From Minisyncoccota bacterium (GTDB taxonomy: Bacteria; Patescibacteriota; Minisyncoccia; Phycocordibacterales; Phycocordibacteraceae), in assembly GCA_028695415.1 (NCBI GenBank), contig JAQVIY010000001.1:113067-177066 (forward strand): 64,000 nt of DNA, in the 5' to 3' direction. The notes under the pieces were generated by a model. The model saw only the letters and a list, made by a program, of their open reading frames with translations, was not told the origin of the DNA and searched no databases. Position numbers and translations under genes: made by a program. This document shows, one piece after another, positions 1-63,117 of the stretch (position 1 is its first letter; every line of letters starts with the position of its first letter).

Positions 1-42
1 CACCTTTTTCGCGCGGAGGGGTGGAACGTTGAGACACGCAAA

Positions 43-582
43 ATGATACGCGGAAAATGCGTTACTCACGAAGTTGATTTTTATGCGTCGCGTGAGAAGG
101 ACAATTCTTTCCTTGCCGCTGAACTCAAGTATCACAACGATCCCGGGTACAAGACCGACCTGAAGATCGCGCTCTACGTGAAGAGCCGTTTCGACGATAT
201 CTTCGCCTGCGACCCCGCGGTGCGCGCCTGTTCCGTCGATCGCGGATTGCTCGTTACGAATACTAAATTCACGTCTGAAGCCATTGCCTATGCCGAGTGT
301 GCCGGCGTCGAGCTTCTCGGCTGGAGCTATCCGGAAAAGGAAAACCTCTTCGCACGTATGAATCGCGCGCGCGTATATCCGATAACTACCGTGACGAGCC
401 TCTCGCATGCCGAGAAAAATATCCTTATCGGGAATGATGTTATCGCGGTTGATCAGATAGTGGAAAATCGCCGCTTGCTCGACCCGCTCCACCTCTCGGG
501 CGAACGGGTCGGGGAACTCCTTGCCGAGATGGACGGGCTCCTTTCGCACCCATTGTCGGCACATGATATTGTTCCCGTATGA
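43..582 (+). CDS. Mrr-like restriction-endonuclease catalytic-domain protein (PD-(D/E)XK). The frame is open back to position 1, so it may be 5' partial
   Basis: D..ELK motif (VDFYAS...AAELKYH) and an LVTNTKFTSEAIAYA...VELLGW segment resembling the Mrr catalytic domain. Its stop overlaps the next start (ATGA). Confidence 0.45.
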   Translation: MIRGKCVTHEVDFYASREKDNSFLAAELKYHNDPGYKTDLKIALYVKSRFDDIFACDPAVRACSVDRGLLVTNTKFTSEAIAYAECAGVELLGWSYPEKENLFARMNRARVYPITTVTSLSHAEKNILIGNDVIAVDQIVENRRLLDPLHLSGERVGELLAEMDGLLSHPLSAHDIVPV

Positions 583-1055
583 CACAGCGCTTTTCGTTCA
601 TCTCCTTCGTTGCCGGCGTCATGCTCGGGGTTCTTCTTGCGGGGATGTGGTTCCTAAGCGATAGTATCGGATCATCACCTTTCTCATCCACGCCGCCTCT
701 TTCGAAAACAGGAGAGCAGAAGACGCCAGAAAGCGGGGCGGTTTCTGTCGCTAGTCAGCCTTCGGGAGAAAACGTCGCTATCGAATCGGTCACGGTCCCG
801 CCGCCGGGAGTGTGGGTTGCGGTGCGCGAAGCCAACGGTACTGACCTCGGGAACGTGCTCGGTGCGGAGCGTGTCGTCGGCCCGCATGGAAATGTAAGCG
901 TTTCGCTTTTGCGCCCGACAGAGCCGAATCGTTCCTATGCGGTCGAACTGTATCGCGATGACAACAACGGGACGTTTGACCCTGCGGTCAATAGCGTGTA
1001 TGTCGACTTCGATACCGGTGCGCGTGTCGTCGCGTTCTTCTCGACAACTGAATGA
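579..1055 (+). CDS. hypothetical N-terminally membrane-anchored protein
   Basis: N-terminal hydrophobic helix (FISFVAGVMLGVLLAGMWFL). Translationally coupled on both sides (ATGA overlaps). Confidence 0.5.
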   Translation: MTQRFSFISFVAGVMLGVLLAGMWFLSDSIGSSPFSSTPPLSKTGEQKTPESGAVSVASQPSGENVAIESVTVPPPGVWVAVREANGTDLGNVLGAERVVGPHGNVSVSLLRPTEPNRSYAVELYRDDNNGTFDPAVNSVYVDFDTGARVVAFFSTTE

Positions 1056-1840
1056 TGATGGCACCGCGCAACCTAAAGACATTCGACCCCTCCTCGCCGG
1101 AGCCGTTCAAGATAAGCCGCTCGAAGCTGGATCTCTTCACCGAGTGTCCGCGTTGCTCGTACCTCGACTTGCGGCTCGGAGTGAAGCGGCCGTCGATGCC
1201 CGCGTTCACGCTCAACAATGCGGTCGACGAGCTCCTGAAACGCGAGTTCGATATCCATCGTGCGAAGGGGAGCAAACATCCGCTTGTCGAGAAATATGGG
1301 CTCGATGCGGTGCCGTTCGATGATCCGCGTATGGAGGAGTGGCGCGACGCGCTTCGTCGCGGCATCAGCTACCTCCACGCTCCGACCAATATCCTCCTGC
1401 GCGGCGGCATCGACGATGTGTGGATCAATCCAGCAGGCGAGCTTATCATCGTGGACTATAAGGCAACGAGCAAGAAGGTCGGTCCTTCTACCGAAGATGA
1501 CCTGTATGACTCGTACAAGCGCCAGCTCGAGATATATCAATGGCTGTTTCGTAAGAACGATTTTGCCGTATCGCCGACCGTCTACTTCGTTTATGTAAAC
1601 GGCAAGTCTGACGCCGAGGCGTTCGACGGCAAGCTTGAGTTTGATGTAGAGCTTATCCCGTATACCGGCAGCGACTCGTGGATCGAGCCTGCGCTCTACG
1701 ACCTGAAGCAGATGCTTATGAGCGAGGAGATACCAGCAGTAGGAAAGGCGTTCGGCGGCGGCCCGTGCGAGTTCTGCACCTATCGCGAAAACGCTGGCAA
1801 GATACTTCTTAGTCTTCACACAAAGAACAAGAAGAAATGA
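1052..1840 (+). CDS. Cas4/RecB-like PD-(D/E)XK nuclease with Fe-S cysteine cluster (DUF83-like), stand-alone
   Basis: N-terminal CPRC, a D...IVDYK catalytic core and a C-terminal C..CEFC arrangement typical of Cas4-family nucleases. No cas genes nearby. Confidence 0.6.
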
Positions 1841-1847
1841 TGAGAGT

Positions 1848-2591
1848 ATGCGGGTAAAAATAGAACCGTCGTGGGCGAAGCATCTCGCGGGCGAGTTTGA
1901 GAAAGAATATTTCAAAGAGCTCGCTGATTTTGTGAAGAAGGAATATCACGAGGGAAACGTGTATCCGGCGCCGAAGAACATTTTCCGTGCGTTTGATCTC
2001 TGTCCGTTTGAAAAAGTAAAAGTAGTCATCTTGGGTCAAGATCCGTATCACGGCACCGGACAAGCAAACGGTCTTAGTTTCGCCGTCGGCGAAGGTGTCG
2101 CGATCCCGCCGTCCCTACAGAACATCTTCAAAGAGATTGAGAGCGATTTGGGGGGCGACCGAGCGAGGAGCGAGGAAGTCCCGAGGCTAGCAAGCCGAGG
2201 GGGAGACCTGACTCGATGGGCAGAACAGGGGGTGCTCCTCTTGAACGCAACGCTCACTGTTCGGGCGCATCAGGCCGGCTCGCATCAGGAGAAAGGCTGG
2301 GAACAATTCACCGACGCGGTTATCAGGGCGCTCTCCGAAGAGCGTGAACATCTTGTCTTTATTCTCTGGGGCAACTACGCGAAGGCGAAAGGGGCGCAGA
2401 TCGACCGAGCGTCGAGCGAGGAAGTCCTGAGGCCAGCAGGCCGAACGGGCGACCGTTCGAAACATCTCGTCATCGAATCGCCCCACCCCTCACCATTTTC
2501 TGCCGCCTCGGGATTCTTCGGATCGCGACCTTTTAGCAAAGCGAACACCTATCTCACCGCTCACGGCGAAACTCCCATCGACTGGCGCTAA
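1848..2591 (+). CDS. ung: uracil-DNA glycosylase, family 1, carrying two in-frame repeat insertions
   Basis: [35 protein letters not shown] and HPSPFSA motifs. Confidence 0.9.
2157..2208 (+). repeat. 52-nt repeat copy 1 inside ung, in frame (encodes [17 protein letters not shown])
   Basis: Nearly identical to 2403..2454. Both lie where canonical UNG has shorter loops. Confidence 0.8.
2403..2454 (+). repeat. 52-nt repeat copy 2 inside ung, in frame (encodes [17 protein letters not shown])
   Basis: Direct repeat of 2157..2208 with a few substitutions, in the same reading frame. Confidence 0.8.
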
Positions 2592-3584: not shown

Positions 3585-3991
3585 TGTTCAGTTCAACAGT
3601 TATACCGCCTGCATCGTCCGAACAAACGCGCGGAAGCGATTATCGGGGTTCGCTTGCGTGGAATCAGTTCGTGACGCAGATCAATAATCTGAATGAAGCG
3701 GGAGAACCGTGCGTTATCGACGTAGCCGGGCTCGGAAAGGACAAGTTTCGCGGTTTTCTCACCGGAGCCCGCATACAAGGACTCTTTCTTATCCTGGAAT
3801 CCCCGGAGCAATTCAAAAAGACCGGGGGTGGCTGGCAGAGTACCGGATTCACCGAGTACAAGGTACACATCTCGAATCACGTGCCGCTTCCGGTAATGCT
3901 GCAAGATGGACGTATCGAAGTCGTGATTGAAGGGATCATCTTCGTGATCTATCCGTATGGCAGGGTCGAATGTCCGCGCTCAGTATGTTGA
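3585..3991 (+). CDS. hypothetical protein
   Basis: ORF with coding-like composition; no recognisable motif. Confidence 0.35.
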
Positions 3992-4064
3992 TGCGGCACC
4001 TTCATCGCCGCAAGAGGAGACTCTTGCGGCGGCTTATTTTTATACCTGCGGTATACTGAGCTGG

Positions 4065-4637
4065 ATGAATCACACTCCCCAGATAAAGAAAGCGATACAA
4101 TTCGCGGCGCGTAAGCACCACGGGCACCTGCGCATCTCGAGTTCGGCAGACGAACCGCTCCCGTATGTAACGCACCTCTTCTCGGTCGCGCTTCTCGTCG
4201 CTGAAGACGGCGCGAGCGATGATGTTGTCACTGCCGCGCTTCTCCACGATACGCTCGAAGATACCGACACGACGCGCGAAGAAATAGTCTCGGCGTTCAA
4301 CGAGCAAGTCGCGAGCCTCGTCGAAGAGGTGAGTGAGGATAAGAAGCTCGAATGGAAAGAGCGCAAAGAAGAATATCTTGTTGGTATGGAACGTTCGAGC
4401 GACGAAGCGCTCCTTATCGCGCTCGCCGATAAGGTAGATAACGTCGAGAGCCGTATAGAAGAATACGAGAAGGAGGGTGATGCGTTTCTCGCTCGCTGGA
4501 AGCGGTCGAACGAAGAGTATCTTTGGTTCTACGATGAAGCGCTTCGTATCGCACAATCTCGATTGCCGAACCACTCACTCACGAAGCGGTACGCCGAGGC
4601 GTGTGCGCGGCAATGTGCTATGCTCTCGGAATCATGA
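4065..4637 (+). CDS. HD-domain protein, RelA/SpoT-type (p)ppGpp hydrolase-like (small alarmone hydrolase)
   Basis: KHHGHLRISSSADEPLPYVTHLFSVA...AALLHDTLEDT matches the SpoT/Mesh1 HD motif. Start chosen at MNHTP. Confidence 0.7.
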   Translation: MNHTPQIKKAIQFAARKHHGHLRISSSADEPLPYVTHLFSVALLVAEDGASDDVVTAALLHDTLEDTDTTREEIVSAFNEQVASLVEEVSEDKKLEWKERKEEYLVGMERSSDEALLIALADKVDNVESRIEEYEKEGDAFLARWKRSNEEYLWFYDEALRIAQSRLPNHSLTKRYAEACARQCAMLSES

Positions 4638-6601
4638 AGCGCAAACGATACGACAAGGCAGATTTCAAATGGGTGACATGGGGTGCGGCTGACTTCAGGC
4701 GCATTGCGGCCGATGGCACACGCCGAAAAAAGGAAGCCTATGCGAAGATACGCGCCATTCCGGCCGAAAAACGCACGTTTGTAAATACGATTTATGCACT
4801 CGAGACATCCGACGAGCGTATGTCGGATGAGATGAACCGTGTCGCTCTTTTGAAAGAAGTCAGTCCTAACGCTGCCATACGCGCAGCAGCAGCAGAAACG
4901 ATTGAGGCCGTACAGAAGCAACTCGTCGAGATAGAGTTCGATCCGCGCATGTATGCGGTCATCAAAGAATATGCCGCGAAACGCGAAAAGCTCTCCGGAC
5001 CTGAAAAGCTTCTTTTCAAAGATCTGAAGAAAGGATACGAACGTATGGGGTTTGACCTGCCGACAGCGAAACAGAAAAAGCTCAAGACGAACATCGCAAC
5101 ATTAGGAAAGCTTGGACTCGCTTTCGACCGCAATCTAAATGAGCACAAAGACCATCTCTTAGTGACGGAAGCAGAGCTCAATGGTCTGCCGGAAAGCTAT
5201 CGTGCTAACCTCACGAAAGTACGGGATAAGTTCAAAATAACGATGGCATATCCAGACGTATACCCGTATATGGCTGGCGCACATGATGAAGAAAAACGGC
5301 GTGAACTGCTTGAAAAGTTCGTTCGCAGAGGCGGCACGAAAAACGTTGTCATTCTCAAGAAGATGTTTCGTCTTCGCGCTGAGAACGCGCGATTGCTCGG
5401 CTACAAGACTCACGCAGACTTCCAAACCGAGCTTCGTATGGCGAAATCGGCCGCTACTGTCTGGCGATTCATTGCCGACCTTGAGCGACGTACCAAGAAA
5501 CAAGTCTCGCGCGATCTCTCGATGCTCAGGGCTGATAAACGTCGTCGTACCGGTGATCCGAAGTCTGTCTTGAGCGCACATGATATCGCATATCTTTTTA
5601 AGCAGATACGCAAGGAGAAATTCGATATCGATTCAGATACCGTGAGAGAATATTTCCCGTTCGAGCACGTGAAGCGCGCGACACTCGACGCATATCAAAA
5701 ATTATTTGGTGTCGTGTTCAAACGCCGCGTCGATGTGAAGCTCTGGCACCCAGACGTGCAACTCTTTGATATATATGATGCGCGCGGTGATTATCTGGCG
5801 ACATTCATTCTCGACTTGTATCCGCGTGAAGGGAAATATGGTCATGCGTGTGCATCTGAACTGACCTATGGTCGACAAGAAGAAAACGGTTATCGACCCC
5901 CACTTGCCGCAATGCTCGCCAATTTCCCGAAACCGAGTGTCGCGAACCCATCGTTAATGAGTCATGGAGAAGTGGAGACATTTTTCCACGAATTCGGACA
6001 CATTATGCATTTCACTCTTACAAAAGCGCGATATAGCGCTCAGTCCGGCTTCAATGTTGCTATGGATTTTGTCGAGGCACCGTCGCAGATGCTTGAGAAT
6101 TGGGTGTGGGATGCTGAAATGCTCACGCGCCTCTCTAAGCACTACAAGACCGGTCAGCCAATGCCGAAAGATCTTATCAAACGCATCATCGATGCTCGCC
6201 TTTTTGGGGAGGCGTGGAGCGTACGCAGCCAGCTGGTGCTCGCATCACTCGATATGGTTATACATACAAAAGGAACGAAAGACCCTGTCGCATTATATGC
6301 CACACTCGATAAGAAATTGATGGGAATCGCACCGCCTAAACGGCAGCTATGGATTGCGGGTTTCGGTCATATTGCGCACGGATACGATGCCGGATATTAC
6401 GGGTATCTCTGGTCAAAAGTATATGCCGAGGATATGTTCAGCAGATTTAAGAAAGAAGGCATTTTGAATCCGAAGACCGGCAGTGACTATCGGCGTTGGG
6501 TACTTGAAAAAGGCTCGAGTATGGAAGAAACGGATCTTGTGAAAGGCTTTCTGGGTCGCAAACCGAATAACAAAGCCTTTCTCAAGTCCATTGGTGCATA
6601 A
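4634..6601 (+). CDS. M3-family zinc oligopeptidase (thimet/oligopeptidase A-like)
   Basis: HEFGH zinc motif (FFHEFGHIMHF) and overall M3 architecture. ATGA overlap with the previous gene. Confidence 0.85.
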   Translation: MKRKRYDKADFKWVTWGAADFRRIAADGTRRKKEAYAKIRAIPAEKRTFVNTIYALETSDERMSDEMNRVALLKEVSPNAAIRAAAAETIEAVQKQLVEIEFDPRMYAVIKEYAAKREKLSGPEKLLFKDLKKGYERMGFDLPTAKQKKLKTNIATLGKLGLAFDRNLNEHKDHLLVTEAELNGLPESYRANLTKVRDKFKITMAYPDVYPYMAGAHDEEKRRELLEKFVRRGGTKNVVILKKMFRLRAENARLLGYKTHADFQTELRMAKSAATVWRFIADLERRTKKQVSRDLSMLRADKRRRTGDPKSVLSAHDIAYLFKQIRKEKFDIDSDTVREYFPFEHVKRATLDAYQKLFGVVFKRRVDVKLWHPDVQLFDIYDARGDYLATFILDLYPREGKYGHACASELTYGRQEENGYRPPLAAMLANFPKPSVANPSLMSHGEVETFFHEFGHIMHFTLTKARYSAQSGFNVAMDFVEAPSQMLENWVWDAEMLTRLSKHYKTGQPMPKDLIKRIIDARLFGEAWSVRSQLVLASLDMVIHTKGTKDPVALYATLDKKLMGIAPPKRQLWIAGFGHIAHGYDAGYYGYLWSKVYAEDMFSRFKKEGILNPKTGSDYRRWVLEKGSSMEETDLVKGFLGRKPNNKAFLKSIGA

Positions 6602-21143: not shown

Positions 21144-21272
21144 GGACAAACTTGGCATTATATATTTATATAGCATCTTCAAATGTAACGGTATTACGCA
21201 AGGCGATGCCAAGTTGTACTACCGGGCTCGCCCGGTAACCTCTCCGTGCGTTGGTGTGATAAAATAAACCCC

Positions 21273-21587
21273 ATGACGCAAGGCAACGAGAAAAACGCAG
21301 GAGAAGTGACGCTTGACGACCTGGCACAGATGGTCGCAGGCGGCTTCCAAGATATCGAAACTCGACTAGTGGGCCGAATAGACCGGCTTGAGGCAAAAAT
21401 GGACCAGAAGTTCTCTGAGGTTGACGACCGTCTTCTCAATCTTGAACGCACCACTTCGGAGACGAAGGTCGCGGTGCTTGATATGAAAGAAGATCTCGCT
21501 GCGACGAACAGCGAGAACGAGGATAACTCCCTTCAACTCACCGACCACGAGCGTCGCATCATCGCGCTTGAGACGGCGACCGCCTAA
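21273..21587 (+). CDS. small coiled-coil protein, paralog A (shares an N-terminal 25 aa and a central block with 23446..23790)
   Basis: MTQGNEKNAGEVTLDDLAQMVAGGF... and LEAKMDQKFSEVDDRLLNLERTTSETKVAVLDMKEDLAAT are identical to paralog B. Confidence 0.6.
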   Translation: MTQGNEKNAGEVTLDDLAQMVAGGFQDIETRLVGRIDRLEAKMDQKFSEVDDRLLNLERTTSETKVAVLDMKEDLAATNSENEDNSLQLTDHERRIIALETATA

Positions 21588-23418: not shown

Positions 23419-23445
23419 TAGTGCTGGTGTGATAAAATAAACCCC

Positions 23446-23790
23446 ATGACGCAAGGCAACGAGAAAAACGCAGGAGAAGTGACGCTTGACGACCTGGCGC
23501 AGATGGTCGCAGGTGGCTTTTCTGAAATGCACGAGGAGATGCATGGTCTTGAAGAACGACTGGATGGACTCGGTGGCCGAATGGGTCGTCTCGAAGCAAA
23601 AATGGACCAGAAGTTCTCTGAGGTTGACGACCGTCTTCTCAATCTTGAACGCACCACTTCGGAGACGAAGGTCGCGGTGCTTGATATGAAAGAAGATCTC
23701 GCGGCGACGCATATCGCAAACGAGAATAATTCTCACCAACTCATCGGTCACGAACACCGCATCGCGACGCTTGAAGCAAGCGTCGCGTAA
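23446..23790 (+). CDS. small coiled-coil protein, paralog B
   Basis: Same 5' region (about 70 nt upstream plus the first 25 codons, near-identical at nucleotide level) and same central block as paralog A. Confidence 0.6.
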   Translation: MTQGNEKNAGEVTLDDLAQMVAGGFSEMHEEMHGLEERLDGLGGRMGRLEAKMDQKFSEVDDRLLNLERTTSETKVAVLDMKEDLAATHIANENNSHQLIGHEHRIATLEASVA

Positions 23791-58422: not shown

Positions 58423-61400
58423 TTATTTCTTCAAGGTGCGGACAAAGATGCTCAAGTCAGTGACATCGACTTTCCCGTCGCCGTTCAGATCATCGAGAAG
58501 TTGTGTCGCCTTGTTCGAGGAACTCCAGCGGGAAAGGAAGATGCTCCAGTCCTGCACATTTATCACGCCGTCCTGATTGAAGTCGGTCTGAGGAGTGAAG
58601 AGTGTCGTCACGGTGAACACTTTCTGAGGCGCAAAGTCGCTCGCTACACCGGAGGGCGAGGTCTGGCGAACCCGCACGGTGTGGCTGCCGAGCGAGAGAG
58701 AGCCGGTCGGATAAAGGATCTTATACGCGCCATCGGCGTCTGCCTTGGCCGTGACGGAGACTGCTTTGCCGTCAACCTGGGCGCTCACAGTGTATCCCGG
58801 CACCGCCATACCAATAAACCCGACGGTATCATTTTGTCGAACGGTCGGCCGAACGAGACCGAGGGTCGGCGAGAGCGCGGTATCAAGCGCAAGGAGCGCA
58901 TTGCTGCTCGTGTAATTAGCATTGAACGCCTTTATCTGGGTCGTGCGCCCGAGATCGTCAACACCGACAATGCCATAGGAACCAATCCCGACCGTAATTC
59001 CTTTCAGGAGGATTGAGAACGAACCGTTTGCTCGCGCCGTCGCTTGTCCTGCGAGAGTCGCTCCCGCCGGTGACACGGCGAGCACCTGCACACTCGCGTT
59101 CGGGAACGCTCGTCCGGAGATCTGTACGCCGGTTATCGCCGGTACCGGTTCAAGACCCGTACCGCCGCCGCTCACGCCCGTCACCGGTACAACCGGTATA
59201 GCTGAGAACAGCAGGCTCTGTGTCGAGGAAACATCGAGGCCGGTGGACTGCGTATCGGAGAGCGAGAGCGTTACCGTCTCAGCGACAGTATCGGAAAGCG
59301 AGATTGTCCCGACGCCGTTTGTCATCGTCACGAGCCCGGCCCCCGTAGCAGAGCCGTCCGTGCGAAGTGTCACGCCCGATACGATTGTCGTGTCGACATT
59401 TCCGTTCTCGTCTTGCGCTTCAACAGTTACGATAGCGGGTGTCCCTACTTGCACCGATGCGGGAGGAAGGATGACGAGCCGCGTCGCGACTATCGGTATC
59501 GCACTCACGGTCACCGAATCAACTGCGTCTTGAACGCCCGCACTGTCAGGAGCTGATGCGTTGTCGGACGCGGTGATGAGCCACGTGCCGGGGGTCTCGT
59601 CATAATACCAGAACGTACCCGAGGAACTGCCGTCGTTGATGGTCGCAAAGGTCGTCGGAGCTCCACCTACCGCGACCGCATAAAAGGCGGTCGTCGTTCC
59701 GGTTGAAGACGAATAAAAGTAGGCGAGCGTTACCCCCGTCGTCACGAGGTTGTTGTATTGGTCTTCGCGAGTCACGGTGTATCCGAGCCGCGTGCCTGCG
59801 GTCATATTACCCGGGTCGTTGAGGAGGAACTTCGCGACAGTTGCCGGCTGTACGGCGATAGCGTCGCTTGCATCAGCGATACCGCTTGCGTCGGGCGCTG
59901 TCGCGTTGTCAGAAACCGTAATGAACCAATTCCCTGCTTTTTCGTCGTATGCCCAGAAAGCTCCTGAAGAATTTCCATTCGAGATAACGAGCGAGGTGAT
60001 AGCGCTCCCTCCTGACGCGGAATCATAGAACTTTTTATTCACGCCGGTCGAAGAGCTGTAGAGATACGCATCCGTTGCACCCGTCGTCACCAGATTTCCG
60101 TATTGATCTTTACGGGTGACCGTATATCCGATGCGCACGCCCGCCGCCGAATCCCCCGGGTTATCGAGCGAGAACTGTGCGACGGCCCCCGGAGCAAAGG
60201 TGAGCGGCTGTGTCGAAGAGACATCGAGACCGGTACCTTGCGAATCGGCAAGAGAGAGTGTTCGCGTTCCCGCATGCGTATCGGAGAGCGGGAGCGTACC
60301 GACGCCGTTTACGATATTCACGAGTCCGGTGCCAGTTACGGTACCCGTCGCGGAAAGCGTCACATCGCTCTCATACGAGGTGTCGACATTACCGCTTCCA
60401 TCCTGCGCCTGCACCGTGACCGTTATCGGTGCGTCTACCGTCCCGTTTACAGGCGGGAGGATAACGAACCGCGTCGCAACTATCGGGGCCGCGTTTACTG
60501 CAACAGCGTCAGAAGCATCTGCGACACCCGTTGCCCCATCGGCAGTCGGCGTTGCATCAGAGACGGTCACGTTCCAGGTTCCTAGATTCGGATCCTCGTA
60601 CCAGAACGACGCGGACGATGCGCTATCGGGTATCGCAAGCGAGGTGATGCTGTTTCCGAGAGAAGCGGCATCATAAAACGCCGGGGAGCTCGTCCCGACG
60701 GAATTGCTGTAGAGATACACGTTTGTGCTGCCGCTTGTCGCGAGATTATTGAACTGGTCCTTGCGCGTCACGGTGTACCCAATCCGCGTGTCGACAGTCA
60801 TATCGCCAGGGTCATTGAGGGAGAGTGCAGCCGTCGGTCCCGCGACGACTCCAAGCGTTTGTACGGCATCATTGACGCCTGTAGTGCCGTCAGGCGCAGA
60901 CGCGTTGTCCGAAGCGGTAATACTCCAGCTCCCTGGAAGAGTGTCGTAATACCAGACACTCGCGCTCGACTGACCGGCAACTATCTGTACTGAAGATATG
61001 ACCGCACCGCCTGTCGCGGCGTCATAGAACTTCTTACTGCTTCCTGTCGAAGAACTATAGAGATATACCGTGCTGGTCGCAGACGAGCTTACATTGCCGT
61101 ACTGATCCTTGCGCGTCACGGTGTACGCCGCTCGTTCTCCCGCAATCAGCGTCGAGGGATTAGAAAGAGAGAACTGTGCAAGAACTCCTCCTGTGAAAGC
61201 GAGCGACTGTGTCGAAGATACATCGAGTCCGGTACTCTCTGAATCAGAGAGTGAGAGCGCCGCCGTCTCAGCAACCGTGTCTGAGATGGCGAGCGTGCCG
61301 ACGCCGTTTATGATATCTACGAGTCCGCCGCCGGTGGCAGAGCCGGTCGTCGCGAGCGTCACGTCGCTTTGATAATTAGTATCGACGCTGGTATCGGGTT

Positions 61401-63117
61401 TCTGCGCCTGCACCGTGACCGTTATCGGTGCGTCTACGGTCCCGCTTGTAGGAGGCAGGATGACGAACTTCGTCGCAACCGGCATCACCGTGACCGCATC
61501 AGTTGCGTCAGTGATGCCGGTAGCCCCGTCAGCGACCGGTGTCGCATCGGAAGCGGTGATGGTATATGAGCCCGGCGTCTCGTCGTAGTACCAGACGTTC
61601 GCCGTCGAATGTCCCGAACCTATCGCGATAGAGGTGATGACGGAACCTGCGAGAGAATCGTCATAAAACTTCTGCGTCCCTCCCGTCGAAGTGGTATAGA
61701 GGTAGACGGTCGTCGTCCCTGTGCCGACGGCATTCCCATACGAATCAAACCGGCTCACGGTATAGCCGAGTCGCGTTTTCGCGTACATGTCACCTGGGTT
61801 AGTAAGGGTAAGCGAAGCAACGGCTCCCGTGGCGACTACGAACGACTGGTCGACATTTGAGGCAGCAGTATAGTTGCTGTCCCCCGCTTGTGAGGCACGA
61901 ATGGTACAGGTGCCGATTGAGACAAGGTGCACGGTTGCCGTACTCACCGTACAGACACCGGCCGTAAGCGATGAGAATGAGACCGCGAGGCCGGAAGATG
62001 CGGTCGCGCTTACCGCGAAGTCAGCCTCGCCGAGCGTCTTGTTCGGGAGCGGGTTGAAGGTGATCGTCTGACTCGCAGGATTGATCGTGAATGTGCCGGC
62101 AGAAGCGGCAGTCAAGCTCGTATAGCTTGTCGTATCCGTCGGGACGAAGTTTGCAGTAACCGCATAGGAGCCGCCATTCGTTTGTGTTGCAGCACCACCC
62201 GTAAGCACAGTGTTCGCTGCTCCCGGAACGGATCCGGTAACCGTAGCCGCCTGAGCGGATCCGGTATAGGTGACGGGCGAATTGGTAACCGAGAGTGTGG
62301 GGGTCGCGCGCGTATCGTTCGTCACGCTGAGCTTGCCGGTTGTCGCCGCAAAGTACGTATTATTTTTATAGGTTGCCGTAGAGCTGGTGGAGCCCCAAGT
62401 GCCGTTGATTCTGCCGAGCCCGCCGAGCGTGAGATTAGCGACCGTGAGAGTAGTCCCCGCACCGATACTCGCTGTCGGTGTCCCGGTAGACGCGACACTG
62501 AGCGTGCCTCCGATTGAAATGCCCGACGCCATGGACTTTGTTCCGCTCCCGGAAAGCGTCACGTTGTTGTAAGTGAATACACCAAGCGTTTGATTGCCGG
62601 ACGCTGAATAGCTTGCGGTGCTGCCTGAGTTATACGCCCAATTGGCGATGCCCGTGGTCGCGGCAGTTGTGCTGAAATTGATAACGCCTCCATTATTGAC
62701 CTGCACGGTAGGACTATTCCCTGCGCCATTCTTGTTAAGACCATTGCTAACGGTTATTCGGAATGTTCCATTGACTACCATTCCGGGGTTCAGATTGTTT
62801 TTGATACCGAAGACCTTTCCTCCGTCCGTGAGTGTTCCGCCGCTGTTTATGGTGACAACGCCGGACTGGTTGAGGTTCGCACTCAGGCTCACCGTATCGC
62901 CAGACGCGATGATAACTGTGTCACTTGTCGCCGGCACGACACCGCCCGCCCATGTAGAGCCAACACTCCAGATACCACCACCGGTCCCGTTGCTTGTTCT
63001 TGTCGCGGCGAATGCCGTATTGGCTCCACTCAAAACGAACAACACTGCACTCACTATCACAACACGTCGGCAGATGGTACTCATAAAGTGAATATAAAGA
63101 TTAGTATCTCTATACAA
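58423..63117 (-). CDS. giant secreted surface protein (about 1560 aa): signal peptide, beta-strand-rich N-terminal region, Ig-like/MBG-like domains, two interleaved tandem repeat families, and a C-terminal type-I dockerin
   Basis: C-terminal DFNQDGVINVQD...DLNGDGKVDVTD is a two-loop calcium-binding dockerin. N-terminal signal peptide. The start may be the internal ATG 33 nt downstream. Confidence 0.85.
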   Translation of the reverse strand: MYRDTNLYIHFMSTICRRVVIVSAVLFVLSGANTAFAATRTSNGTGGGIWSVGSTWAGGVVPATSDTVIIASGDTVSLSANLNQSGVVTINSGGTLTDGGKVFGIKNNLNPGMVVNGTFRITVSNGLNKNGAGNSPTVQVNNGGVINFSTTAATTGIANWAYNSGSTASYSASGNQTLGVFTYNNVTLSGSGTKSMASGISIGGTLSVASTGTPTASIGAGTTLTVANLTLGGLGRINGTWGSTSSTATYKNNTYFAATTGKLSVTNDTRATPTLSVTNSPVTYTGSAQAATVTGSVPGAANTVLTGGAATQTNGGSYAVTANFVPTDTTSYTSLTAASAGTFTINPASQTITFNPLPNKTLGEADFAVSATASSGLAVSFSSLTAGVCTVSTATVHLVSIGTCTIRASQAGDSNYTAASNVDQSFVVATGAVASLTLTNPGDMYAKTRLGYTVSRFDSYGNAVGTGTTTVYLYTTSTGGTQKFYDDSLAGSVITSIAIGSGHSTANVWYYDETPGSYTITASDATPVADGATGITDATDAVTVMPVATKFVILPPTSGTVDAPITVTVQAQKPDTSVDTNYQSDVTLATTGSATGGGLVDIINGVGTLAISDTVAETAALSLSDSESTGLDVSSTQSLAFTGGVLAQFSLSNPSTLIAGERAAYTVTRKDQYGNVSSSATSTVYLYSSSTGSSKKFYDAATGGAVISSVQIVAGQSSASVWYYDTLPGSWSITASDNASAPDGTTGVNDAVQTLGVVAGPTAALSLNDPGDMTVDTRIGYTVTRKDQFNNLATSGSTNVYLYSNSVGTSSPAFYDAASLGNSITSLAIPDSASSASFWYEDPNLGTWNVTVSDATPTADGATGVADASDAVAVNAAPIVATRFVILPPVNGTVDAPITVTVQAQDGSGNVDTSYESDVTLSATGTVTGTGLVNIVNGVGTLPLSDTHAGTRTLSLADSQGTGLDVSSTQPLTFAPGAVAQFSLDNPGDSAAGVRIGYTVTRKDQYGNLVTTGATDAYLYSSSTGVNKKFYDSASGGSAITSLVISNGNSSGAFWAYDEKAGNWFITVSDNATAPDASGIADASDAIAVQPATVAKFLLNDPGNMTAGTRLGYTVTREDQYNNLVTTGVTLAYFYSSSTGTTTAFYAVAVGGAPTTFATINDGSSSGTFWYYDETPGTWLITASDNASAPDSAGVQDAVDSVTVSAIPIVATRLVILPPASVQVGTPAIVTVEAQDENGNVDTTIVSGVTLRTDGSATGAGLVTMTNGVGTISLSDTVAETVTLSLSDTQSTGLDVSSTQSLLFSAIPVVPVTGVSGGGTGLEPVPAITGVQISGRAFPNASVQVLAVSPAGATLAGQATARANGSFSILLKGITVGIGSYGIVGVDDLGRTTQIKAFNANYTSSNALLALDTALSPTLGLVRPTVRQNDTVGFIGMAVPGYTVSAQVDGKAVSVTAKADADGAYKILYPTGSLSLGSHTVRVRQTSPSGVASDFAPQKVFTVTTLFTPQTDFNQDGVINVQDWSIFLSRWSSSNKATQLLDDLNGDGKVDVTDLSIFVRTLKK
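59370..61830 (-). repeat. interleaved tandem coding repeats inside the giant protein gene (about 115-aa unit x5 and about 95-aa unit x3)
   Basis: Unit A recurs as ..YTVTRKDQYGN...VYLYSSSTG..KKFYD..GG..I.S..I..G.SS..W.YDE.PG.W.ITASDNA.APD. Unit B as VATRFVILPP..GTVDAPITVTVQAQ...GNVDT....DVTL...G..TG.GLV.I.NGVGT..LSDT.A.T..LSL.DS..TGLDVSSTQ.L.F. Boundaries approximate. Confidence 0.7.

Follow-up and report, generated by a model that had tools for sequence, protein, structure and literature searches.

The four genes that open the window, by which is meant the whole 64,000-nucleotide (64 kb) stretch of DNA analysed here, on balance probably belong to a conserved housekeeping DNA-maintenance string of CPR bacteria with a genome-maintenance core, in which a stand-alone Cas4-like nuclease, Cas4L, would contribute end-processing to repair. 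They would form the distal part of a long translationally coupled string in a Kaiserbacteria-like CPR bacterium, with the order MltG, MnmA, a small TM protein, an ATP-cone nuclease, a DUF7282 protein, Cas4L and Ung. Cas4L is a CPR-wide core protein and is more conserved than its locus neighbours. Furthermore, ung carries two in-frame copies of a 48-nt hairpin repeat that is like the Rickettsia palindromic elements (RPEs), occurs in essential genes of related bacteria and is apparently previously undescribed.

All four same-direction ORFs of the original prediction are present on the + strand, running from 1 or 43 to 582, 579-1055, 1052-1840 and 1848-2591. The prediction also counted three ATGA overlaps and one 7-nt gap; the overlaps at 579-582 and 1052-1055 and the gap at 1841-1847 stand, but the ATGA at 43-46 holds a Met codon within gene 1, the ATP-cone nuclease, and marks no junction. 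The true start of that gene overlaps the upstream gene by ATGA at L001:8662-8665, outside the window (L001 is the same contig, with window base 1 at L001 base 8950), and the MnmA/up136 junction, also upstream of the window, is likewise an ATGA overlap (L001:8255-8258); therefore the chain of overlaps exceeds four genes. At the other end, a promoter-like site on the + strand (TTGACA-17-TACAGT, 2600-2628, 10/12 matches) lies between the ung stop and the IMP-cyclohydrolase gene and could be the downstream boundary of the transcription unit, which is only suggestive because such sites are no more numerous there than chance predicts.

Cas4L (1052-1840, + strand) is a 262-aa stand-alone nuclease of the RecB/Cas4 superfamily, as had been proposed, with PDDEXK_1 (PF12705) matching at 44.5 bits against a gathering score of 22. 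Both the HMM score and the D / D-x-K / Q-x3-Y motifs (D121, D135-Y-K137 and Q158...Y162) are those of the RecB-family PD-(D/E)XK enzymes, and D121, D135, K137, Q158 and Y162 are invariant in 77/77 sequences. The proposed 1+3 cysteine arrangement did not hold up, as Cas4L has exactly four cysteines in a 2+2 pattern (C32-x2-C35...C239-x2-C242, i.e. CxxC...CxxC). These four are invariant in 76-77 of the 77 homologues, while the canonical fourth-Cys position of Cas4 (residue 248 in Cas4L) is A, V, I or L in the 77 sequences. To our knowledge, the 2+2 pattern is unlike that of every characterised Fe-S RecB-family nuclease. The AF2 model (pLDDT 82.8) has predicted structural matches in Foldseek to RecE, the AdnA nuclease, EXO5, Cas4 SSO0001, MGME1, ACE1 and lambda exonuclease; a PDB sequence search, with the single sequence and with a profile, returned nothing meaningful and hence no solved homologue by sequence. 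RecE, AdnA, EXO5, Cas4 and MGME1 are all DNA-end-processing exonucleases. Identification of Cas4L as a CRISPR Cas4 was rejected given a TIGR00372 score of 26.7 bits against a cut-off of 65, the 2+2 cysteines and the lack of any array or cas gene; the PADLOC Cas4 models score 24-31 bits.

Homologues of Cas4L number more than 7,900, with the best 120 at 77-87% identity; over many lineages identity is 55-88%, and at least 558 species-level genomes, from many named CPR groups, encode a relative that is 56-88% identical. At the related locus L003, Cas4L is 88% identical, ahead of MnmA (79%), the ATP-cone nuclease (78%) and Ung (72%). Solo Cas4-family genes have been described as over-represented in CPR and DPANN genomes and as evolving vertically, with a 'defence or repair' function that is unknown (PMC5704561). 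Literature searches on Cas4-like proteins in Patescibacteria gave nothing specific.

The first gene was suspected to continue upstream of the window, and retrieval of the upstream contig sequence proved it: the full gene is L001:8662-9531 and encodes 289 aa, of which the window (1-582, + strand) holds the C-terminal 193 codons, i.e. two thirds of the protein, ending in a C-terminal helical tail. The Mrr-type nuclease domain assigned to it is borne out in the full-length protein (Pfam Mrr_cat, 26.7 bits, cut-off 21), while the window fragment alone falls under the cut-off at 17.6 bits. The N-terminus is an ATP-cone (PF03477, 28.7 bits for the full-length protein). Residues 94-274, spanning the nuclease and C-terminal helical regions by which the AF1548-like family is recognised, match PDB 1Y88 (AF1548) with E=4.8e-22; EVD...AELK aligns with EID...IECK of AF1548, so that the predicted catalytic D...ExK triad described for that protein (PMC1821046) is kept. 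An Mrr-type (type IV) enzyme would be expected to carry a modification-sensing N-terminal DNA-binding domain and to sit in a defence island; gene 1 has instead the ATP-cone and housekeeping flanks. There are 1516 homologues; of the top 120, 85 are exactly 289 aa long, with identities of 73-87%. ATP-cones are the ATP/dATP sensors of ribonucleotide reductases and NrdR. We know of no study of nucleotide-pool control of a DNA nuclease through such a fusion, and literature searches on ATP-cone/restriction-nuclease fusions gave nothing specific.

The second gene (579-1055, + strand), which overlaps both neighbours by ATGA, encodes a 158-aa DUF7282 protein (PF23951, 42.6 bits) whose N-terminal hydrophobic stretch probably acts as a membrane anchor, in line with the small membrane-anchored protein originally proposed. 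Among loci retaining the ATP-cone nuclease/Cas4L pair, only about half have it, its place being taken by an MgtC-family gene or left empty in other relatives; it is therefore no obligatory partner and is probably an optional passenger of the cluster. Within the block, conservation is lowest for the membrane genes. The last gene (1848-2591, + strand) is indeed ung: its 247-aa product matches the NF003592 Ung equivalog at 305 bits (cut-off 162), TIGR00628 at 260 (cut-off 186) and Pfam UDG, and the GQDPYH and HPSP motifs of family-1 uracil-DNA glycosylases are intact. The commonest Ung length in close relatives is 222 aa (45 of the top 120), and the window protein is 25 aa longer because of two repeat insertions.

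A comparison of 80 genomes gives a recurring gene order of MnmA, a small TM protein, the ATP-cone nuclease, (DUF7282 or MgtC), Cas4L, (a 90-aa Ogt) and (a glycosylase). The nuclease assignments are confirmed by domain searches, with the corrections given above. The ATP-cone nuclease gene lies next to and upstream of Cas4L in 42 of 76 scored loci, a 90-aa O6-alkylguanine-transferase-type (Ogt) gene, missing from the window, is directly downstream of Cas4L in 28 loci, and family-1 Ung follows in 28 loci of the close clade. In nine remoter loci a different UDG-superfamily glycosylase occupies the same position. Together, the nuclease adjacency, the Ogt gene and the retained UDG argue for the DNA-repair cassette that was one of the two functions originally offered.

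Under this repair reading, the four cysteines of Cas4L would bind a metal centre, by analogy either Fe-S as in Cas4, AddB and EXO5, with the N-terminal helix now supplying the fourth ligand, or Zn. The enzyme may be a 5'-end or flap-processing single-strand DNA exonuclease that acts after base removal or alkyl transfer, in long-patch base-excision repair or in end resection, the latter in genomes possibly devoid of RecBCD/AddAB. The ATP-cone would make the upstream nuclease respond to the ATP/dATP pool. The window genome has lost its Ogt gene and gained two in-frame 48-nt repeats in presumed surface loops of Ung.

The repair reading has to be weighed against simple gene-order inertia, under which housekeeping genes are adjacent by chance in a compact, co-directional CPR chromosome and share no common pathway. 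Overlapping starts and stops can reflect compaction: about five more four-base (NTGA) overlaps occur among the roughly 45 same-strand junctions of the window on a crude gene map, and an ATGA overlap also joins MnmA to an unrelated TM protein, so four-base overlaps are common in this genome and are nothing particular to the four-gene cluster. The one-strand string also runs on into MnmA, MltG, a sigma factor and LeuRS upstream and into PurO, an HD protein, an M3 peptidase and AlaRS downstream. In the most distant CPR lineages (Cas4L identity under about 60%) Cas4L is surrounded by housekeeping genes unrelated to it; the linkage is therefore restricted to a clade and could be such inertia. However, Cas4L, Ogt and UDG stay adjacent across lineages whose flanking genes change, and the non-orthologous UDG-superfamily gene at the same position in nine loci is hard to account for without selection for the neighbourhood. 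Inertia alone is considered unlikely.

A smaller chance still is given to a nucleotide-salvage or incoming-DNA module, in which the (d)NTP pool would govern how the ATP-cone nuclease and Cas4L degrade or trim DNA that is imported or damaged. CPR bacteria are generally unable to make nucleotides de novo, the ATP-cone is fused to a nuclease with intact catalytic residues, membrane proteins (DUF7282, MgtC and up136) are interleaved, and the IMP-cyclohydrolase gene is just downstream. Against this improbable reading, the genes that stay with Cas4L most persistently, Ogt and UDG, encode enzymes of lesion-specific repair and not of salvage, the membrane genes are poorly conserved relative to the rest of the block, and no competence or uptake genes occur within ±10 kb.

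The other function first proposed, a defence-style module directed by UDG and the restriction-type and Cas4-like nucleases at foreign DNA that contains uracil or is modified, has the Mrr_cat and Cas4 similarities in its favour, as well as the Cas4-like PF12705 proteins found in some defence contexts elsewhere (PMC5704561), but is highly improbable, being unsupported by PADLOC, CRISPR, neighbourhood and conservation evidence alike: PADLOC-DB gave no system match (weak Cas4 similarity for one protein and nothing for the other four), no cas genes lie in the annotated ±10 kb and no CRISPR-like repeat array in the 64 kb window, which upholds the predicted lack of CRISPR-Cas context, no defence-related neighbours were found within ±10 kb, where the flanking genes are all housekeeping (also IF-1 and ribosomal proteins), and the Mrr-type N-terminal DNA-recognition domain is replaced by the ATP-cone. 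Furthermore, the nuclease genes show high conservation, a constant length and, as comparison across genomes indicates, vertical inheritance, which is the opposite of defence-gene behaviour, and the same holds for all three enzymes over hundreds of species.

The two insertions in ung belong to a dispersed 48-nt repeat (window repeat family D11). Copy 1 (2156-2208, + strand; 53 nt with flanking CGACC; nhmmer E=1.7e-8) lies in frame at 'site 1', an Ung loop at residues ~104-119, and copy 2 (2402-2454, + strand; E=3e-14) lies in frame at 'site 2', residues 186-201, 12 residues before HPSP. Each ung copy encodes 16 residues, ERGSTEASRPNV being one peptide stretch from the 48-nt inserts. Site 1 is also occupied in L009, L016, L017, L021 and about 30 of 120 Ung homologues, with the repeat in antisense orientation in P0277, P0302, L110 and L118. 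Copy 2 is unique among the 120 closest Ung proteins and adds exactly 48 nt to the empty site ATCGACC|GC seen in L002, L003, L005 and L013; CGACC is found on both sides of this copy, is already present in the empty site and is unseen at the SerRS insertion (L135). The AF2 model of Ung is weak overall (pLDDT 67.6, and below 50 over residues 187-203), so it lends only loose support to disordered insert loops.

In all, 85 copies of the repeat were found in 77 metagenome stretches with unrelated flanks, many of them from the Hainich groundwater sites, and the window has two copies. Pfam-verified in-frame hosts are AtpD, SerRS, DnaG, PseudoU_synth_2 (an RluA-type synthase), Glu/Leu dehydrogenase, a P-type ATPase, DUF305, a class-II aaRS and an MBL-fold protein, and the repeat is also within Ung and the ATP-cone nuclease, in the latter as a 16-residue gain over the 289-aa form. 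Only the Pfam-verified internal cases are claimed here, as the figure of 70/85 copies inside ORFs of at least 110 aa is an over-estimate because some spanning ORFs are spurious (e.g. L086) and others put the repeat upstream of the true start. Copies upstream of the true start were seen for adenylate kinase (L153), HhH-GPD (L123), a pilin-like gene (L146) and DUF475 (L131). The repeat is used in at least five reading frames and in both orientations, and is also found intergenically and as head-to-tail arrays with a 47-48 nt period. For the hairpin, the share of paired cells is 92.7%, compared with 88.4% for shuffles and 12-40% for slid controls, and 4/9 pairs have compensatory changes, figures that derive from copies ascertained with a pattern partly fixing the inner stem.

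No Rfam family matches the repeat, no terminal inverted repeats are evident in its consensus, and literature searches on the repeat sequence or peptide gave nothing specific. Two other identities were rejected. A CRISPR array with the repeat as spacer does not fit, as the second repeat seen beside some copies (L127) occurs just twice, at a spacing of 90 nt; and on inspection the unpaired stretches oppose each other as an internal loop, with no stagger on opposite strands, unlike a bulge-helix-bulge (archaeal-intron-like) hairpin.

Taken jointly, the propositions that Cas4L is a new CxxC...CxxC metal-centre variant in a CPR repair pathway and that the 48-nt repeat is an undescribed mobile element of Paceibacteria are put forward tentatively, as possible rather than probable. 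Cas4L could be the end or flap nuclease of a CPR-specific pathway with genetic links to Ogt and UDG, in which an ATP/dATP-sensing nuclease would be its partner. The repeat could be currently or recently mobile, an RPE-like 'selfish DNA in proteins' that uses five reading frames, with Ung loop 1 and the N-terminus of the ATP-cone nuclease as recurrent hot spots.

CPR bacteria account for a large part of bacterial diversity and have tiny genomes with a reportedly pared-down repair repertoire. Cas4L, more conserved than a tRNA-modification enzyme and found beside Ogt and UDG, is a good candidate to fill a gap in CPR genome maintenance and a purifiable target, in which the Fe-S or Zn centre and the substrate can be addressed. 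The fusion of an ATP-cone to a DNA nuclease suggests that the nucleotide pool regulates the enzyme. Structured repeats that colonise essential genes in frame are known mainly from Rickettsia, and the 48-nt repeat extends this to free-living groundwater CPR. The repeat matters for annotation because it leaves unexplained 16-residue insertions in conserved proteins, and it is relevant to protein evolution and to the typing of strains in uncultured lineages.

Among known systems, the window Ung corresponds to the family-1 enzyme of E. coli in its equivalog-level HMM match and shared catalytic motifs, but has two 16-residue in-frame insertions from a dispersed repeat and, like most aligned relatives, Phe in place of the intercalation-loop Leu (HPSPFS). 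The ATP-cone nuclease resembles AF1548 (PDB 1Y88), a restriction-endonuclease-like protein of unknown function from Archaeoglobus, in sequence over 94-274 and in the predicted D...ExK, but differs from AF1548 and Mrr_cat in carrying an ATP-cone where Mrr has a winged-helix N-domain, in its housekeeping context, in its strict length of 289 aa and in its sequence conservation. With the Fe-S RecB-family nucleases of the Cas4/AddB/EXO5/Dna2 type (SSO0001, PDB 4IC1; human EXO5, 7LW7), Cas4L shares the PD-(D/E)XK core, the D / D-x-K / Q...Y motifs, cysteines at the N-terminal helix and C-terminal end, and a small stand-alone size. The modelled fold is recovered by Foldseek with a probability of ~1.0, yet TM-scores are only 0.34-0.48, and the cysteines are CxxC...CxxC where theirs are C...CxxCx5C. 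Unlike Cas4, Cas4L is without CRISPR-cas context; its gene belongs to the core set throughout the CPR and shows linkage to Ogt and UDG.

The closest parallels for the 48-nt repeat are RPEs (described in PMC10969869) and intragenic MITE/REP-like repeats, all of which are short, dispersed and hairpin-forming and lie both intergenically and in frame in unrelated housekeeping genes of a reduced-genome host. As in RPEs, the peptide added by the 48-nt repeat would be accommodated in surface loops. The repeat is much shorter than RPEs (~100-150 nt) and its hosts are CPR bacteria, and head-to-tail arrays, use of at least five frames and insertion in both orientations are features of its own.

Four plus-strand ORFs are present as originally predicted, at 43-582 (gene 1), 579-1055 (gene 2), 1052-1840 (gene 3, here called Cas4L) and 1848-2591 (gene 4, ung), with ATGA start/stop overlaps at 579-582 between genes 1 and 2 and at 1052-1055 between genes 2 and 3, and with the expected 7-nt gap before ung at 1841-1847. 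The frame of gene 1 is open back to window base 1, and the suspicion that it extends further upstream was borne out on L001, a longer copy of the window contig with 9 kb more upstream sequence, obtained by exact-protein look-up from SRR22315504 as assembled by Logan (L001 base 8950 corresponds to window base 1). Completed there, gene 1 encodes 289 aa (L001:8662-9531); since it starts at L001:8662, the third overlap proposed, ATGA at 43-46, is an internal Met. The start of the full gene overlaps by ATGA with up136, a 136-aa membrane-protein gene, whose own start likewise overlaps mnmA, so the chain is longer than was noted: MnmA, up136, genes 1 to 3, then the gap and ung. Elsewhere, a crude gene map of the window gave about 5 other NTGA overlaps among about 45 same-strand junctions. 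If the M3 peptidase gene (4601-6601) is given its longest-ORF start, GTG at 4601, it shares about 37 nt with the HD-domain gene (3957-4637); position 4637 may hold an NTGA-type junction, and the start codon there is uncertain. Upstream of the window, the 946-aa LeuRS gene (L001:890-3730) has a precomputed Pfam NUDIX match (PF00293) between tRNA-synt_1 segments, which would be an unusual insertion domain.

Assignment of the 262-aa Cas4L to the Cas4/RecB-like nucleases stands on a PDDEXK_1 match (44.5 bits), but the Cas4 equivalog cut-off of 65 is not reached (only 26.7 bits) and the PADLOC Cas4 models give 24-31 bits. The 1+3 cysteine arrangement claimed for it is incorrect. Cas4L has exactly four cysteines, C32, C35, C239 and C242, invariant in 76-77 of 77 homologues from many CPR lineages, and the last cysteine of Cas4, AddB and EXO5, which sits x5 after CxxC, is never matched by Cys at the equivalent Cas4L residue 248 in these homologues (A, V, I or L instead); the arrangement is therefore 2+2. 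D121, D135, K137, Q158 and Y162 are invariant in the same set. An AlphaFold model (pLDDT 82.8) matched RecE, the AdnA nuclease domain, human EXO5, Cas4 SSO0001, MGME1, lambda exonuclease and ACE1, an Argonaute-associated protein of the Cas4 family, with probabilities of ~1.0 and modest TM-scores (0.34-0.48), while single-sequence and profile searches of the PDB detected no solved structure homologous by sequence. Cas4L, the core of the gene string, is in its cysteine pattern a novel member of the RecB/Cas4 nucleases. In three loci (L061:6746-7597, L054 and L070; two are titled Wildermuthbacteria) a second, different Cas4-like gene directly follows Cas4L, with its first Cys after a YVRC motif and three more near the C-terminus; it looks like the classical 1+3 pattern and with Cas4L would form a tandem pair of RecB-family nucleases.

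The other three products were largely identified as proposed. In its full-length form, gene 1 combines an ATP-cone (PF03477, 28.7 bits) with the predicted Mrr-type domain (Mrr_cat, 26.7 bits; gathering score 21), and over residues 94-274 it aligns with AF1548, a protein from structural genomics (PDB 1Y88, E=4.8e-22), whose catalytic triad, itself a prediction (PMC1821046), is kept as EVD...AELK. The gene 1 family numbers 1,516 detected members, the best 120 of which are 73-87% identical and, in 85 cases, exactly 289 aa long; an identical NCBI entry is named 'restriction endonuclease [Candidatus Pacebacteria bacterium]'. Gene 2 carries a DUF7282 domain and the hydrophobic N-terminal segment expected of the small membrane-anchored protein, the segment being read as a putative anchor. 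Gene 4 is a family-1 Ung at equivalog level (305 bits, cut-off 162).

ORFs up to four genes from Cas4L were clustered in 76 loci, with representatives annotated by Pfam, and the recurring order was [DUF8128 - MltG] - MnmA - (up136) - ATP-cone nuclease - (DUF7282, MgtC or nothing) - Cas4L - (Ogt-type) - (Ung or other UDG-superfamily) - (HD protein) - (AlaRS). Of the 76 loci, 42 have the ATP-cone nuclease upstream of Cas4L and 28 have Ung. The Ogt-type gene (90 aa, PF01035, PCHRV motif) occurs in 28/76, immediately downstream of Cas4L in 25 of those, and lies between Cas4L and ung at, for example, L003:6757-7033 and L015:742-1014; the window genome belongs to the subset with ung directly after Cas4L, only 7 nt separating 1840 from 1848, and neither Ogt nor a second UDG was detected within the 64-kb window. 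Nine remoter loci, with Cas4L at 58-64% identity, have at the Ung position a UDG-superfamily gene that is not an orthologue of Ung (e.g. L041:7743-8351, 106.9 bits on PF03167), putatively family-4-like by our reading of its GEAPG motif, and in still remoter lineages unrelated housekeeping genes surround Cas4L.

The homologues that carry names belong to Candidatus Kaiserbacteria, Paceibacterota, Minisyncoccota and Patescibacteria. More than 7,900 Cas4L homologues were detected, the best 120 being 77-87% identical, and with each GTDB species represented by a single genome, at least 558 Cas4L-encoding loci were confirmed, of which the best 80 (56-88% identical) include Kaiser-, Taylor-, Zambryskii-, Wildermuth-, Harrison-, Azam-, Moranii-, Kerfeld-, Gracili- and Doudnabacteria. 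When 15 billion proteins are reduced to representatives at 50% identity, 241 clusters belong to the family at E<=1e-30, rising to 1,738 at E<=1e-3; the majority are stand-alone and 240-270 aa long. Cas4L is the best-conserved gene of the block within the same loci (in L003, 88% identity, with MnmA 79%, ATP-cone nuclease 78%, Ung 72%, DUF7282 69% and up136 55%), which is the signature of an essential housekeeping enzyme rather than a defence gene.

The operon is real but ordinary in kind, a conserved CPR string of housekeeping and repair genes. The DNA-repair alternative of the original prediction is supported by the adjacency of Cas4L, Ogt and UDG across loci and the in-situ glycosylase swap. 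Cas4L may be a metal-centre-bearing DNA exonuclease processing 5' ends or flaps, acting after base removal or alkyl transfer or else in end resection; the ATP-cone could make the upstream nuclease responsive to ATP/dATP, and the membrane protein may be an exchangeable passenger. The strongest competing explanation is that gene order merely persists by inertia in a compact chromosome, and overlapping genes are common in this genome; the best evidence of a functional link is that three lesion-processing genes stay adjacent as the flanks change and that the glycosylase is displaced in situ. A role in nucleotide salvage or incoming-DNA processing is a weaker rival. The defence-style alternative was dropped: Cas4L is conserved like a housekeeping enzyme and stands alone as predicted, with no CRISPR-like array in the 64-kb window, no PADLOC system among the locus proteins and no defence-related gene within ±10 kb, where the genes encode LeuRS, a sigma factor, MltG, MnmA, IMP cyclohydrolase, an HD protein, M3 peptidase, AlaRS, IF-1, S13 and S11. 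Hudaiberdiev et al. (PMC5704561) had noted an excess of solo Cas4-family genes in CPR and DPANN genomes, with vertical evolution and uncharacterised 'defence or repair' functions. The window locus fits that picture, to which it adds the Ogt/UDG linkage and the altered cysteine pattern.

The most interesting content at these coordinates is an in-frame hairpin repeat in ung. The window Ung is 247 aa long, against 222 aa in 45/120 closest relatives, owing to two 16-residue insertions encoded by plus-strand copies of a 48-nt element (53-nt stretches at 2156-2208 and 2402-2454, 85% identical to each other). Site 2 is uninterrupted in relatives (ATCGACCGC) and has exactly 48 extra bases in the window, with a CGACC flank on each side. 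Site 1 is filled by the element in L009, L016, L017, L021 and about 30/120 closest Ung proteins. There it is reversed in P0277, P0302, L110 and L118, while L147 has it doubled and P0305 nested, which must be independent events; the second window copy could equally stem from template switching out of site 1, mediated by CGACC. Both inserts are unstructured (pLDDT <50) when the window Ung is modelled by AF2, a weak model overall (pLDDT 67.6), consistent with tolerated surface loops.

A search with nhmmer gave no further copy in the window; across 0.85 Mb of loci from related genomes, all copies it detected were at ung site 1. A degenerate 31-nt pattern recovered 85 copies from 77 metagenome stretches, many of them of groundwater origin and with flanks unrelated to one another, and the element also occurs intergenically and as head-to-tail arrays with a period of 47-48 nt. 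Its consensus, tGCGACCGAGCG(NN)GAGCGAGGAAGTACTGAGGCCAGCAGGCCGAATGTGCga, is open in 5/6 reading frames by our own translation, has no Rfam match and folds as an irregular hairpin, GUAC-U-[GA]-GGCC-AGCA-GGCC-[GA]-A-(U)-GUGC. Over 47 distinct copies, with the inner stem partly fixed by the search pattern, pairing holds in 92.7% of cells (shuffles, 88.4%; slid partners, 12-40%), and compensatory changes occur at 4/9 pairs. Many housekeeping genes carry the element in-frame, with both orientations and several frames in use. Pfam-verified genes with an internal in-frame element encode ATP synthase beta, SerRS, DnaG primase, an RluA-type pseudouridine synthase, Glu/Leu dehydrogenase, a P-type ATPase (antisense orientation), DUF305 proteins, class-II aaRSs and an MBL-fold protein; some supposed in-ORF copies are actually upstream of the true start codon. 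The ATP-cone nuclease carries the element after codon 4 in L090 (~2744-2791) and P0207 (MTT(L/P)...(T/V)IIKADG), so two of the four gene families of the cluster are recurrent hosts. Five further homologues of this nuclease have 300 aa, and both of those inspected (P0122 and P0127) have an 11-residue insert at the codon-4 spot, possibly a degraded copy.

A second repeat of ~35 nt, TGTATTAATTCAGTTTGCCTCGACCTCGAGGAGAA-like, borders the element, on one side or on both, at L127:8335-8459 and in L089, L092, L106, L130 and L152, and may be part of a composite unit or a preferred target. Other repetition in the window includes three divergent repeats at 59168-61704 (61-88% identical, period ~990-999 nt), suggesting a large repetitive protein gene with units of ~330 aa, and a duplicated segment at 21252-21571 and 23425-23774 (95 nt at 98% identity, then 208 nt at 86%). 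The 95-nt part covers an apparent 5' leader and start (GATAAAATAAACCCCATGACGCAAGGC), and the copies look like two paralogous genes 2.2 kb apart with near-identical upstream and N-terminal regions. The 48-nt element appears to be undescribed so far, no paper having been found that mentions its sequence or peptide. Its closest analogy is with the Rickettsia palindromic elements (RPEs; reviewed in PMC10969869), although it is three-fold shorter and belongs to a different phylum.
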